Positions 554 to 37,022 of a stretch of 64,000 bases of DNA are shown piece after piece; within the stretch, counting starts at the first letter, position 1, and the number at the start of each line of letters is the position of its first letter. The notes beneath the pieces are model-generated. The model had not been told where the DNA came from. It did no database searches and saw nothing but the letters and a program-made list of their open reading frames with translations. A program made the position numbers and the translations under genes. Origin of the DNA: Escherichia coli (GTDB lineage Bacteria; Pseudomonadota; Gammaproteobacteria; Enterobacterales; Enterobacteriaceae); the NCBI RefSeq assembly GCF_013122565.1, contig NZ_CP053258.1. One strand, given 5' to 3'.

Positions 554-581
554 CTTGAAACCCTGAAACTGATCCCCATAA
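554..581 (+). promoter_or_regulatory. sigma32 heat-shock promoter of grpE (-35 CTTGAAA, -10 CCCCATAA)
   Basis: CTTGAAA at 554-560 and CCCCATAA at 574-581 with 13-bp spacer, 47 bp upstream of grpE ATG; matches sigma32 consensus CTTGAAA / CCCCATnT. Confidence 0.5.
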
Positions 582-3539: not shown

Positions 3540-4901
3540 ATGTTTGATAATTTAACCGATCGTTTGTCGCGCACGCTGCGCAATATCAGTGGCCGTGGAC
3601 GCCTCACTGAAGACAACGTAAAAGATACGCTGCGCGAAGTGCGCATGGCGCTGCTGGAGGCGGACGTCGCTCTGCCGGTAGTGCGTGAGTTTATCAATCG
3701 CGTAAAAGAGAAAGCGGTTGGTCATGAAGTTAATAAGAGCCTGACGCCGGGGCAGGAGTTCGTCAAAATCGTCCGTAACGAACTGGTTGCGGCGATGGGC
3801 GAAGAGAACCAGACCCTGAACCTGGCGGCGCAACCGCCTGCGGTCGTGCTGATGGCGGGCCTGCAAGGTGCCGGTAAAACAACCAGCGTTGGTAAACTCG
3901 GTAAGTTCCTGCGCGAGAAGCACAAGAAGAAAGTGCTGGTGGTTTCTGCCGACGTTTATCGCCCGGCGGCAATCAAACAGCTTGAGACGCTGGCAGAGCA
4001 GGTGGGCGTTGATTTCTTCCCTTCTGATGTTGGTCAGAAGCCGGTAGATATCGTTAACGCGGCGCTGAAAGAAGCCAAACTGAAATTCTACGACGTGCTG
4101 CTGGTGGATACCGCCGGTCGTCTGCACGTTGACGAAGCGATGATGGACGAGATCAAACAAGTCCATGCGTCGATTAACCCGGTTGAAACCCTGTTTGTGG
4201 TTGACGCCATGACCGGTCAGGATGCGGCCAATACGGCAAAAGCATTCAATGAAGCGTTACCGCTTACCGGCGTAGTGTTGACCAAAGTGGACGGCGATGC
4301 CCGCGGCGGTGCGGCGCTCTCTATTCGTCACATCACTGGCAAACCGATCAAGTTCCTCGGTGTTGGCGAGAAAACTGAGGCGCTGGAGCCGTTCCATCCG
4401 GACCGCATCGCGTCGCGTATTCTCGGCATGGGCGACGTACTGTCGCTGATCGAAGATATCGAAAGCAAAGTTGACCGCGCGCAGGCAGAGAAATTAGCCA
4501 GCAAGCTGAAAAAAGGCGACGGCTTCGATCTCAACGATTTTCTTGAGCAACTGCGCCAGATGAAAAATATGGGCGGCATGGCTAGCCTGATGGGCAAGCT
4601 GCCGGGCATGGGGCAGATCCCGGATAACGTCAAGTCGCAGATGGACGATAAAGTGCTGGTGCGTATGGAGGCCATCATCAACTCGATGACGATGAAAGAG
4701 CGCGCTAAGCCAGAAATCATCAAAGGTTCGCGTAAGCGTCGTATCGCCGCTGGTTGCGGGATGCAGGTACAGGACGTTAACCGCCTTCTGAAGCAGTTCG
4801 ACGACATGCAGCGCATGATGAAGAAAATGAAGAAGGGCGGAATGGCGAAGATGATGAGAAGCATGAAAGGGATGATGCCGCCGGGATTTCCTGGTCGCTA
4901 A
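3540..4901 (+). CDS. ffh: signal recognition particle protein Ffh
   Basis: 453-aa ORF with GTPase motifs (GLQGAGKTT, DTAGR, TKVDG) and Met-rich C-terminal M domain. Confidence 0.97.
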   Translation: MFDNLTDRLSRTLRNISGRGRLTEDNVKDTLREVRMALLEADVALPVVREFINRVKEKAVGHEVNKSLTPGQEFVKIVRNELVAAMGEENQTLNLAAQPPAVVLMAGLQGAGKTTSVGKLGKFLREKHKKKVLVVSADVYRPAAIKQLETLAEQVGVDFFPSDVGQKPVDIVNAALKEAKLKFYDVLLVDTAGRLHVDEAMMDEIKQVHASINPVETLFVVDAMTGQDAANTAKAFNEALPLTGVVLTKVDGDARGGAALSIRHITGKPIKFLGVGEKTEALEPFHPDRIASRILGMGDVLSLIEDIESKVDRAQAEKLASKLKKGDGFDLNDFLEQLRQMKNMGGMASLMGKLPGMGQIPDNVKSQMDDKVLVRMEAIINSMTMKERAKPEIIKGSRKRRIAAGCGMQVQDVNRLLKQFDDMQRMMKKMKKGGMAKMMRSMKGMMPPGFPGR

Positions 4902-4914
4902 TCGGCCTGGCTTG

Positions 4915-5006
4915 TTTGCCATTTTGGCACCGGGGTGTGCTCGTCATCCTCACGTACTGCGTGTACGCTCCGGTGACTGCGCGCACTCCGGCACCAAACT
5001 GGCTGC
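4915..5006. repeat. GC-rich dispersed intergenic repeat (boxC-like); second copy at 61622..61714
   Basis: About 90 bp sharing long identical blocks with 61622..61714 (TTTGCCA, GTGCTCG, ATCCTCACGTAC, CGTGTACGCTC, CCAAACTG, CTGCA); by-eye alignment roughly 70-75% identical. Confidence 0.45.
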
Positions 5007-5071
5007 ACCGCCGACGGCCTTTTACAGCAGAGTTAGCAACTGTTGATTGCAATTTCCGCAAAAATGAGTAA

Positions 5072-13840: not shown

Positions 13841-14236
<396 letters not shown>

Positions 14237-14403
14237 TCAAAATGTGTGATGGAAATCTCATAATTTTGTCACTTTTTGTCAACGAATCTTTTTTGTGAGA
14301 AATCGCAGGAAGAGGTGTTTTTTTACTTGAGGAATATCTCAAAGCGAGCCATATTTGATGAGATCGATAGTGACTAAATCGCTTCAGTTTCACAACTAAC
14401 AGA

Positions 14404-14436
14404 ATAAAAAAACGGCAGCTCAAGGGCTGCCGTTTT
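14404..14436 (-). terminator. bamD rho-independent terminator
   Basis: On minus strand AAACGGCAGC-CCTTGA-GCTGCCGTTT followed by TTTTTTT. Confidence 0.55.
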
Positions 14437-14452
14437 GTGTTTCAGGTTTTTG

Positions 14453-17095: not shown

Positions 17096-17124
17096 CTTGA
17101 ATAATTGAGGGATGACCTCATTTA
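17096..17124 (+). promoter_or_regulatory. sigma32 heat-shock promoter of clpB
   Basis: CTTGAAT (17096-17102) and CCTCATTTA (17116-17124), 13-bp spacer, about 40 bp upstream of clpB ATG. Confidence 0.5.
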
Positions 17125-17162
17125 ATCTCCAGTAGCAACTTTGATCCGTTATGGGAGGAGTT

Positions 17163-19736
17163 ATGCGTCTGGATCGTCTTACTAATAAATTCCAGCTTGC
17201 TCTTGCCGATGCCCAATCACTTGCACTCGGGCACGACAACCAATTCATCGAACCACTTCATTTAATGAGCGCCCTGCTGAATCAGGAAGGGGGTTCGGTT
17301 AGTCCTTTGTTAACATCCGCTGGCATTAATGCTGGCCAGTTGCGCACAGATATCAATCAGGCATTAAATCGTTTACCGCAGGTTGAAGGTACTGGTGGTG
17401 ATGTCCAGCCATCACAAGATCTGGTGCGCGTTCTTAATCTTTGCGACAAGCTGGCGCAAAAACGTGGTGATAACTTTATCTCGTCAGAACTGTTCGTTCT
17501 GGCGGCACTTGAGTCTCGCGGCACGCTGGCCGACATCCTGAAAGCAGCAGGGGCGACCACCGCCAACATTACTCAAGCGATTGAACAAATGCGTGGAGGT
17601 GAAAGCGTGAACGATCAAGGTGCTGAAGACCAACGTCAGGCTTTGAAAAAATATACCATCGACCTTACCGAACGAGCCGAACAAGGCAAACTCGATCCGG
17701 TGATTGGTCGTGATGAAGAAATTCGCCGTACCATTCAGGTGCTGCAACGTCGTACTAAAAATAACCCGGTACTGATTGGTGAACCCGGCGTCGGTAAAAC
17801 TGCCATCGTTGAAGGTCTGGCGCAGCGTATTATCAACGGCGAAGTGCCGGAAGGGTTGAAAGGCCGCCGGGTACTGGCGCTGGATATGGGCGCGCTGGTG
17901 GCTGGGGCGAAATATCGCGGTGAGTTTGAAGAACGTTTAAAAGGCGTGCTTAACGATCTTGCCAAACAGGAAGGCAACGTCATCCTGTTTATCGACGAAT
18001 TACATACCATGGTCGGCGCGGGTAAAGCCGATGGCGCAATGGACGCCGGAAACATGCTGAAACCGGCGCTGGCGCGTGGTGAATTGCACTGCGTAGGTGC
18101 CACGACGCTTGACGAATATCGCCAGTACATCGAAAAAGATGCTGCGCTGGAACGTCGTTTCCAGAAAGTGTTTGTTGCCGAGCCTTCTGTTGAAGATACC
18201 ATTGCGATTCTGCGTGGCCTGAAAGAACGTTACGAATTGCACCACCATGTGCAAATTACTGACCCGGCAATTGTTGCAGCGGCGACGTTGTCTCATCGCT
18301 ACATTGCTGACCGTCAGCTGCCGGATAAAGCCATCGACCTGATCGATGAAGCAGCATCCAGCATTCGTATGCAGATTGACTCAAAACCAGAAGAACTCGA
18401 CCGACTCGATCGTCGTATCATCCAGCTCAAACTGGAACAACAGGCGTTAATGAAAGAGTCTGATGAAGCCAGTAAAAAACGCCTGGATATGCTCAACGAA
18501 GAACTGAGCGACAAAGAACGTCAGTACTCCGAGTTAGAAGAAGAGTGGAAAGCAGAGAAGGCATCGCTTTCTGGTACGCAGACCATTAAAGCGGAACTGG
18601 AACAGGCGAAAATCGCTATTGAACAGGCTCGCCGTGTGGGTGACCTGGCGCGGATGTCTGAACTGCAATACGGCAAAATCCCGGAACTGGAAAAGCAACT
18701 GGAAGCCGCAACGCAGCTCGAAGGCAAAACTATGCGTCTGTTGCGTAATAAAGTGACCGACGCCGAAATTGCTGAAGTGCTGGCGCGTTGGACGGGGATT
18801 CCGGTTTCTCGCATGATGGAAAGCGAGCGCGAAAAACTGCTGCGTATGGAGCAAGAACTGCACCATCGCGTAATTGGTCAGAACGAAGCGGTTGATGCGG
18901 TATCTAACGCTATTCGTCGTAGCCGTGCGGGGCTGGCGGATCCAAATCGCCCGATTGGTTCATTCCTGTTCCTCGGCCCAACTGGTGTGGGGAAAACAGA
19001 GCTTTGTAAGGCGCTGGCGAACTTTATGTTTGATAGCGACGAGGCGATGGTCCGTATCGATATGTCCGAGTTTATGGAGAAACACTCGGTGTCTCGTCTG
19101 GTTGGTGCGCCTCCGGGATATGTCGGTTATGAAGAAGGTGGCTACCTGACCGAAGCTGTGCGTCGTCGTCCGTATTCCGTCATCCTGCTGGATGAAGTGG
19201 AAAAAGCGCATCCGGATGTCTTCAATATTCTGTTGCAGGTACTGGATGATGGGCGTCTGACTGACGGGCAGGGGAGAACGGTCGACTTCCGTAATACGGT
19301 TGTCATTATGACCTCTAACCTCGGTTCCGATCTGATTCAGGAACGCTTCGGTGAACTGGATTATGCGCACATGAAAGAGCTGGTGCTCGGTGTGGTTAGC
19401 CATAACTTCCGTCCGGAATTCATTAACCGTATCGATGAAGTGGTGGTCTTCCATCCGCTGGGTGAACAGCACATTGCGTCGATTGCGCAGATTCAATTGA
19501 AACGTCTGTATAAACGTCTGGAAGAACGTGGTTATGAAATCCACATTTCTGACGAGGCGCTGAAACTGCTGAGCGAGAACGGTTACGATCCGGTCTATGG
19601 TGCACGTCCTCTGAAACGTGCAATTCAGCAGCAGATCGAAAACCCGCTGGCACAGCAAATACTGTCTGGTGAATTGGTTCCGGGTAAAGTGATTCGCCTG
19701 GAAGTTAATGAAGACCGGATTGTCGCCGTCCAGTAA
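17163..19736 (+). CDS. clpB: AAA+ disaggregase chaperone ClpB
   Basis: ORF track 17151..19736; ATG at 17163 after GGGAGGAG gives [19 protein letters not shown]..., 857 aa; two Walker A sites ([16 protein letters not shown]). Confidence 0.96.
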
Positions 19737-19851: not shown

Positions 19852-19879
19852 TTGTCAGGCCGGAATAACTCCCTATAAT
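19852..19879 (+). promoter_or_regulatory. rrnG promoter P1 (-35 TTGTCA, -10 TATAAT) with AT-rich UP element upstream
   Basis: TTGTCA 19852-19857, 16-bp spacer, TATAAT 19874-19879; AT-rich AAAGTTTTTATATTTTTCG immediately upstream; about 300 bp before 16S. Confidence 0.6.
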
Positions 19880-19970: not shown

Positions 19971-19998
19971 TTGACTCTGTAGCGGGAAAGCGTATTAT
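19971..19998 (+). promoter_or_regulatory. rrnG promoter P2 (-35 TTGACT, -10 TATTAT)
   Basis: TTGACT 19971-19976, 16-bp spacer, TATTAT 19993-19998, about 120 bp downstream of P1. Confidence 0.6.
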
Positions 19999-36814: not shown

Positions 36815-36871
36815 AAATAATGTCGGGATTAAACCCGGCATTTAACTTGTCGACAAAGTGCGCTTTATTCA

Positions 36872-36971
36872 TGCCGGATGCGGCGTGAACGCCTTATCCG
36901 GCCTACAAGATCGTGCAAATTCAATATATTGCATGAGCCACGTAGGCCTGATAAGCGTAGCGCATCAGGCA
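36872..36971. repeat. BIME: two inverted REP palindromic units
   Basis: TGCCGGATGCGGCGTGAACGCCTTATCCGGCCTACA and inverted GTAGGCCTGATAAGCGTAGCGCATCAGGCA. Confidence 0.7.
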
Positions 36972-37022
36972 GTTTTGCGTTTGCCAGCACTTTTAATACC
37001 AGGCTTAAACCCGGCATTGAGA

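Follow-up and report, generated by a model that had tools for sequence, protein, structure and literature searches.

The sequence considered here belongs to clpB of E. coli, which encodes the ATP-dependent chaperone ClpB, an AAA+ disaggregase of the Hsp100/Clp type, and lies within a 64,000-nucleotide stretch of DNA that we analysed as a whole and call the window. Of 5426 complete E. coli genomes, 5425 matched a 2.8-kb query around the gene, with 95 to 99.8% identity; the matches are labelled clpB throughout, with yfiH alongside, and over the same 2.8 kb the gene in the window is 99.7 to 99.8% identical to annotated RefSeq clpB. The RefSeq annotation of near-identical genomes has it run from the ATG at 17163 to a stop at 19736. 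The gene order around it is raiA-bamD-rluD-yfiH-clpB-16S/tRNA-Glu/23S, so that an rrn operon comes after clpB. Given that clpB matches across E. coli genomes and keeps the same neighbours, the window can be placed on the E. coli chromosome, and the identity of the gene is established both by its near-identical sequence and by its conserved chromosomal context (rluD-yfiH-clpB-rrn operon).

Two places at which ribosomes could begin translation are found in this gene, one at its 5′ end and one within the coding sequence, and their parts are listed in Table 1. The internal GTG is codon 149 of clpB, in frame 0, and the Shine-Dalgarno (SD) sequence ahead of it stands at a functional spacing, 5 nt from the GTG when the distance is counted from GGAGGTG and 7 nt when it is counted from the GGAGG core. 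The initial annotation had proposed precisely this GTG, as Val149, and both the codon number and the local peptide are as it described; its placement of GGAGGTG at 17594-17600 is off by one base, and the gap of 6 nt that it gave is in fact 5 nt (AAAGC). It had also stated that a truncated ClpB is known to be made from an internal GTG, which agrees with the synonymous-site conservation, the domain boundary and the published experiments described below.

Table 1. Coordinates in the window of the features of clpB and its two translation starts
Feature	Position	Strand	Basis
clpB coding sequence, 857 aa, stop codon included	17163..19736	+	ORF list, RefSeq annotation, Pfam
Sigma-32-type heat-shock promoter-like motif CTTGAA-N14-CCTCAT, 5′ of clpB	17096..17121	+	pattern match
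SD sequence of the primary start, GGGAGGAG	17153..17160	+	sequence; -9.6 kcal/mol for pairing inside the scored stretch
Primary ATG, full-length ClpB (857 aa, 95.6 kDa)	17163..17165	+	RefSeq annotation of near-identical genomes
Codons 1-148, N-terminal Clp_N domain and beginning of the linker, long isoform only	17163..17606	+	Pfam
In-frame ATG, Met143, six codons 5′ of GTG149, a decoy and not a start	17589..17591	+	no SD sequence ahead; Salmonella mutagenesis
Internal SD sequence GGAGGTG: Gly145 (GGA), Gly146 (GGT) and first base of Glu147	17595..17601	+	sequence; pairing of -13.6 kcal/mol; conservation of GGA
Spacer AAAGC, 5 nt, from internal SD sequence to GTG	17602..17606	+	sequence; the variant in strain CAVP773 differs here only
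Internal GTG, Val149 of the long form and fMet1 of the short form	17607..17609	+	in-frame codon; conservation; experimental literature
Frame that encodes the short isoform (709 aa, 79.9 kDa): NBD1, middle domain, NBD2 and C-terminal small domain	17607..19736	+	Pfam, computed mass

The position of the internal codon coincides with a boundary in the protein. Full-length ClpB shows the expected Pfam architecture, with two Clp_N matches followed by AAA (NBD1), AAA_lid_9, AAA_2 (NBD2) and ClpB_D2-small, all of them above the gathering cut-off, and a product that begins at codon 149 loses Clp_N and retains every other domain. The short product is thus a coherent unit that starts at a domain boundary, and stand-alone genes of the same architecture begin 1 to 4 codons away from it. 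This fits the published description of residues 1-148 as a globular helical N-domain carried on a short unstructured linker, in a study that also reports GUG at codon 149 as the alternative start of E. coli clpB and the origin of two isoforms (PMC6168691). The predicted masses, 95.6 kDa for the long form and 79.9 kDa for the short one, match the published 95- and 80-kDa forms.

How unusual the motif is depends on the comparison that is made. We scored every in-frame ATG, GTG and TTG by how well the stretch from -17 to -5 pairs with the 16S rRNA 3′ end, using 52 annotated coding sequences of a near-identical genome mapped onto the window, which contain 906 internal in-frame start codons. GTG149 of clpB ranks first among these 906, it pairs more strongly than all 52 annotated starts of the window, and it is the sole instance in the 52 coding sequences of an in-frame GGAGG followed, after 4 to 9 nt, by a start codon. 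A TTG at codon 49 also showed strong pairing in a scan that was blind to spacing, owing to a G-rich stretch about 15 nt away, and was lost as a candidate once spacing was enforced. The rank of 1 in 906 overstates the case, as the Arg-Gly-Gly peptide itself favours an SD-like sequence. When synonymous codons were shuffled within each of the 52 coding sequences, a site of equal or greater strength arose in 33.5% of 200 trials, and for the peptide EQMRGGES-V with the codon usage of clpB, the probability of obtaining GTG together with pairing of -13.6 kcal/mol or stronger is 0.012, rising to 0.23 when the threshold is relaxed to -9 kcal/mol. The same shuffles showed that real coding sequences are depleted of strong SD-like internal sites, holding 2 where 5.9 are expected at -10 kcal/mol or below and 6 where 13.6 are expected at -9 kcal/mol or below, which makes the retention of the clpB site notable, though not decisive. 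Taken by itself, the combination of SD sequence and GTG is therefore only suggestive of an internal start, and since shuffles often produce an equal site, it is conservation and the published experiments that decide the matter.

Within E. coli, the site is almost invariant. Of 5425 complete E. coli genomes, 5416 share without any difference the 30-mer at 17588-17617, which covers the SD sequence and the GTG, and 5377 share a longer stretch of 60 nt around the site. In the one variant that we inspected, from strain CAVP773, the change is confined to the spacer, where GAA becomes GTA. To sample other species, we used degenerate DNA patterns anchored 3′ of the internal site, which kept the sampling independent of the site; one of them was run against one genome per species, and a second, more specific for gammaproteobacteria, against metagenome contigs. 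From these, we assembled an enteric-like set of 15 clpB genes, including that of E. coli, with 79 to 89% nucleotide and 90 to 98% amino acid identity over 846 nt.

In this set, both the start codon and its SD sequence are held at synonymous positions. The codon for Val149 is GTG in all 15 genes, and among the 14 invariant Val columns it is the only one with a single codon, the other 13 using 2 to 4 codons each. Likewise, Gly145 is encoded by the rare GGA in 11 of the 15 genes, against 3% (10/330) at the other invariant Gly columns. A start codon in the linker with pairing of -7 kcal/mol or stronger was present in 13 of the 13 close relatives tested and in 1.5% of control windows, the controls being 17-codon windows in the same genes, and the synonymous sites that neighbour the SD sequence and the GTG vary freely among the relatives. 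Outside the enterobacteria, GGAGG followed by GTG is also present in Rodentibacter rarus, a member of the Pasteurellaceae, in the form GTGGAGGACAAAGC-GTG. Such a pattern in the enteric-like genes would be expected under selection for an internal ribosome-binding site, with the reservation that the counts are phylogenetically non-independent.

As for transcription, the pattern CTTGAA-N13-15-CCYCAT occurs twice in the window, once 5′ of clpB and once 5′ of grpE, and from the established consensus we take the motif at 17096-17121 to be a putative sigma-32 promoter. No second sigma-32-like motif was found inside clpB by pattern search, and a scan that covers sigma-70-type sites only found no such promoter from 17163 to 17607 on the + strand. 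An internal promoter was accordingly rejected as a candidate, and with no sigma-70-like site between the ATG and the GTG there is little to suggest a separate internal transcript. We also considered whether the SD sequence might be sequestered in the mRNA in the manner of a thermosensor. In the minimum-energy fold, GGAGGUG pairs with the upstream CCACCGCCA (17557-17565). This hairpin is no more stable than those of shuffled sequences (z = -0.86), and its CCACC segment is not retained in 14 relatives, so we rejected it as a regulatory element. The accessibility of the internal site is ordinary as well, with a mean unpaired probability of 0.33 against 0.39 ± 0.085 at control positions; it is not unusually open.

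The internal start of clpB is a textbook case that was first described in the early 1990s, and the original papers on the dual start are those of Squires et al. in 1991 and Park et al. in 1993. More recent work has approached it with ribosome profiling. Meydan et al. (bioRxiv 10.1101/520783) listed clpB, infB and mrcB as genes of E. coli whose internal starts had been characterised before and observed well-defined, highly specific retapamulin (Ribo-RET) peaks at the verified sites, clpB included. In Salmonella, Fijalkowski et al. (PMC11005335) tagged the chromosomal clpB gene and detected two bands on a HiBiT blot; mutation of Met143 left both forms in place, and changing the GTG at nucleotides 445-447 to CTT left the long form only. 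[quoted passage not shown]

Four other explanations of the motif or of the short protein deserve to be weighed against internal initiation at GTG149. One takes the SD-like motif and the GTG to be by-products of coding for Arg-Gly-Gly-Glu-Ser-Val that would, at most, slow elongating ribosomes. There is material for such a view, as the peptide alone gives a probability of 0.60 for pairing of -9 kcal/mol or stronger, a third of the synonymous shuffles of the window hold a site as strong, and across bacteria SD-like pairing is raised 5′ of this column (mean of -5.0, compared with -2.7 for the other Val codons) with no significant difference in upstream pairing between genes that have GTG there and genes that do not. 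A coding by-product would nevertheless leave the fixed GTG and the excess of rare GGA in the enteric relatives without a reason, and it is at odds with the published Ribo-RET peak and with the loss of the short form upon mutation of the start codon, so that we give it practically no weight. The choice of start codon within the linker can be judged on similar grounds. The ATG at 17589 (Met143) has in its favour that ATG is the preferred start codon and that automated calling of the Ribo-RET site in Salmonella put it there (PMC11005335), but no SD-like sequence lies ahead of it, and the Salmonella Met143 mutant keeps both isoforms whereas the GTG mutant loses the short one; initiation at Met143 in place of GTG149 is thus extremely improbable.

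The remaining two explanations concern how the 80-kDa protein, or its mRNA, comes about. Proteolytic cleavage after the N-domain would be plausible from the structure, as codon 149 sits at the boundary of that domain and a protease could cut the short unstructured linker described there. However, the GTG to CTT change in Salmonella keeps the long form and abolishes the short one, an initiation-specific Ribo-RET peak maps to the site at codon 149, and conservation at synonymous sites is not expected of a protease site, all of which make cleavage a most unlikely source of the short form. Somewhat less remote, though still very unlikely, is that the short form comes mainly from a separate, shorter mRNA made from a promoter inside clpB, 5′ of 17595. 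Primer extension on Leptospira clpB, also in E. coli, found transcripts that start 20 to 96 nt 5′ of the internal start of that gene, and our promoter scan covers sigma-70-type sites only. Against this stand the results of that scan and of the search for a second sigma-32-like motif, and the Salmonella study places the alternative starts inside transcripts that were annotated or detected and ascribes the proteoform ratios to translational control (PMC11005335). Even if such an mRNA were made, it would alter the source of the message only, and translation would begin at the internal SD sequence and GTG all the same.

Thus, the stretch 17595-17609 is almost certainly the familiar second start of translation in clpB of E. 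coli, which yields ClpB80 beside ClpB95. What we obtained in this analysis is the anatomy of the sequence, the conservation at synonymous sites and the domain boundary; initiation at codon 149, the two protein bands and the function of the hetero-oligomers come from the papers on E. coli and Salmonella. The feature was already known, so that nothing new is said here about E. coli, and our comparative results are modest side observations. As a correct rediscovery of a classic internal start by which one gene gives two proteins, the clpB site serves as a positive control, because the right codon was picked from the sequence alone.

The case closest to the present one is clpB of E. coli K-12 itself, which is the same gene (99.7% identity, with strains BLR(DE3) and AS19), with the same codon 149, the same GGAGGTG-AAAGC-GTG context and the same predicted products of 95.6 and 79.9 kDa. 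The strain of the window departs from it at a few synonymous positions in other parts of clpB and in nothing substantive. In Salmonella Typhimurium, the homologous GTG (nucleotides 445-447) is likewise codon 149 and gives two validated bands, and the enteric-like relatives in our metagenome sample retain the GTG and an SD sequence. The ratio of short to long form, and how it is regulated (under SPI-2-inducing conditions, for example), have been measured in Salmonella only. The genes infB (forms of IF2) and mrcB (forms of PBP1b) also make nested proteins by means of an internal start, and all three are recovered by Ribo-RET, but the proteins and the consequences differ, as clpB drops a whole folded domain, Clp_N.

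Together, these observations suggest how the two forms may be produced. A sigma-32-type promoter-like motif stands ahead of clpB, and we infer that in this strain one mRNA serves both starts. On this mRNA, 30S subunits would bind either at the 5′ GGGAGGAG and the ATG at 17163, giving ClpB95, or at the internal GGAGGUG and the GUG at 17607, giving ClpB80. In the second case, GGAGGUG at 17595-17601 would pair with the 3′ end of 16S rRNA and guide initiation from 5 nt 5′ of the GTG, and the same GTG would be read as Val149 in the long form and as fMet in the short form. Internal initiation is predicted to give a protein of 709 residues with the N-terminus fMet-Asn-Asp-Gln that lacks the N-domain only. 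With its start in the linker that follows the N-domain, ClpB80 would be a complete AAA+ disaggregase without its substrate-interacting N-domain. According to the literature, the two forms assemble together into mixed hexamers, which are better at reactivating aggregates than each form by itself. Hetero-oligomers of ClpB95 and ClpB80 have been reported to have higher aggregate-reactivation activity (PMC6941012).

Beyond the enteric-like genes, the picture changes, and conservation at synonymous sites was found neither in more distant gammaproteobacteria nor across bacteria. In 77 more distant gammaproteobacterial genes, with 80 to 95% identity in NBD1, GTG was seen 25 times at the Val149 column against 33 expected, and in the 83 genes from across bacteria that have Val there, it was seen 30 times against 35 expected (P = 0.91). 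These two samples, neither of which is enriched in GTG, rule out a universal conservation of GTG149. A start codon with an SD sequence in the linker is modestly enriched in the same 77 genes (17%, against 3.6% of control windows) and barely so in 113 genes across bacteria (7% against 4.8%). In Alphaproteobacteria, the position equivalent to Val149 is occupied by Ala. A good SD sequence with GTG does occur in scattered distant genes, for instance in a Firmicute (L046), a Nitrospirota MAG (L073) and a Synechococcales MAG (L061), and also in L067, L093 and L102.

A separate observation concerns four stand-alone clpB-like genes (L004, L065, L091 and L113) that have no N-domain. Their products have the architecture of ClpB80, with AAA, AAA_lid_9, AAA_2 and ClpB_D2-small and no Clp_N, and their ATG codons lie 30 to 33 codons before the equivalent of Asp178, that is, 1 to 4 codons from the boundary marked by Val149 in E. 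coli. The difference from ClpB80 is that here the short form is the sole product of a separate gene, made from an ordinary 5′ start with no nested initiation.

The signal of the internal start is thus fixed at synonymous positions in the enteric relatives, undetectable in most other lineages and, in some, replaced by stand-alone genes without the N-domain. One tentative reading of these sequence comparisons, which we consider quite possible, is that the combination of SD sequence and GTG149 could be a lineage-restricted adaptation, present in enterobacteria, Pasteurellaceae and scattered other lineages, and not the general feature of ClpB for which it is at times taken. If this is true, most bacteria would make no short ClpB from codon 149, or would make it in another way, and the comparative result may be of use when the two-isoform model is transferred to other species.

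In the 52 coding sequences of the window, internal in-frame start codons were preceded by strong Shine-Dalgarno-like sequences less often than in synonymous-codon shuffles of these coding sequences. At a pairing energy with the 16S rRNA 3′ end of −10 kcal/mol or stronger, there were 2 sites in the real sequences versus 5.9 in the shuffles, and at −9 kcal/mol or stronger, the numbers were 6 and 13.6. Internal Shine-Dalgarno-like sequences are known to be avoided in coding regions, and the scarcity observed here agrees with this avoidance.

Nine E. coli genomes differ in the 30-mer around the internal start site of clpB. In one of these, strain CAVP773 (locus L244), a GAA codon in the spacer, equivalent to positions 17602-17604 of the window, is replaced by GTA (Glu147Val), and both GGAGGTG and the internal GTG are intact. 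The RefSeq annotation places the primary clpB start at 17163, versus an in-frame upstream ATG at which the ORF finder begins. That ATG overlaps the primary Shine-Dalgarno sequence of clpB and has none of its own.

Coordinates of the features discussed (L-numbers are loci from other genomes or metagenome contigs, with their own numbering; all other positions refer to the window)
Feature	Position	Strand	Comment
Sigma-32-type motif, near-consensus, CCCTTGAAACCCTGAAACTGATCCCCATAAT	554-579	+	74 nt upstream of grpE ORF
GrpE ORF, 197 aa	628-1221	+	
In-frame ATG	17151-17153	+	four codons 5′ of annotated clpB start; ORF finder begins clpB ORF here
Sigma-70-like promoter match, strong	19852-19879	+	between clpB stop (19736) and 16S rRNA gene (~20180)
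Sigma-70-like promoter match, strong	19971-19998	+	between clpB stop (19736) and 16S rRNA gene (~20180)
REP/BIME-like palindromic units, e.g. GCCGGATGCGGCGTGAACGCCTTATCCGGCCTAC, GTAGGCCTGATAAGCGTAGCGCATCAGGC	36815-37022		yfiE-srmB intergenic
clpB-like gene, Clp_N absent	L004:214-2295	-	Bacteroidia MAG
clpB-like gene, Clp_N absent	L065:1360-3417	+	proteobacterial MAG
clpB-like gene, Clp_N absent	L091:6682-8850	+	
clpB-like gene, Clp_N absent	L113:2908-4938	+	

As for the surroundings of clpB, a pattern search of the 64 kb window for CTTGAA-N13-15-CCYCAT returned only two matches, one upstream of grpE and the other upstream of clpB, so both mark heat-shock genes. Downstream of clpB, the two sigma-70-like matches, which scored 11/12 and 10/12 in the promoter scan, are probably the tandem P1 and P2 promoters of the rRNA operon, and no terminator-like hairpin was found 3′ of clpB on the + strand under the criteria of the scan. 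Intergenic regions differ between the window and E. coli strain ECNB21-M121, which lacks around 150 nt of the yfiE-srmB palindromic region and carries an IS4 copy between raiA and bamD (~14183-14452) that is absent from the window; the ffh-rpsP interval (4901-5028) is around 127 bases longer in the window.

Stand-alone clpB-like genes without the N-domain were found at four loci, at least two of which (L004 and L065) come from metagenome-assembled genomes. Relative to the residue that corresponds to Asp178, the ATG codons of these genes are 30-33 codons upstream, at a distance of 1-4 codons from the boundary marked by Val149 in E. coli, and they are preceded by Shine-Dalgarno-like sequences with pairing energies of −8.2 to −9.5 kcal/mol, including AAAGGAG in L004 and L065. 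These four loci are natural ClpB genes that encode the short form only.
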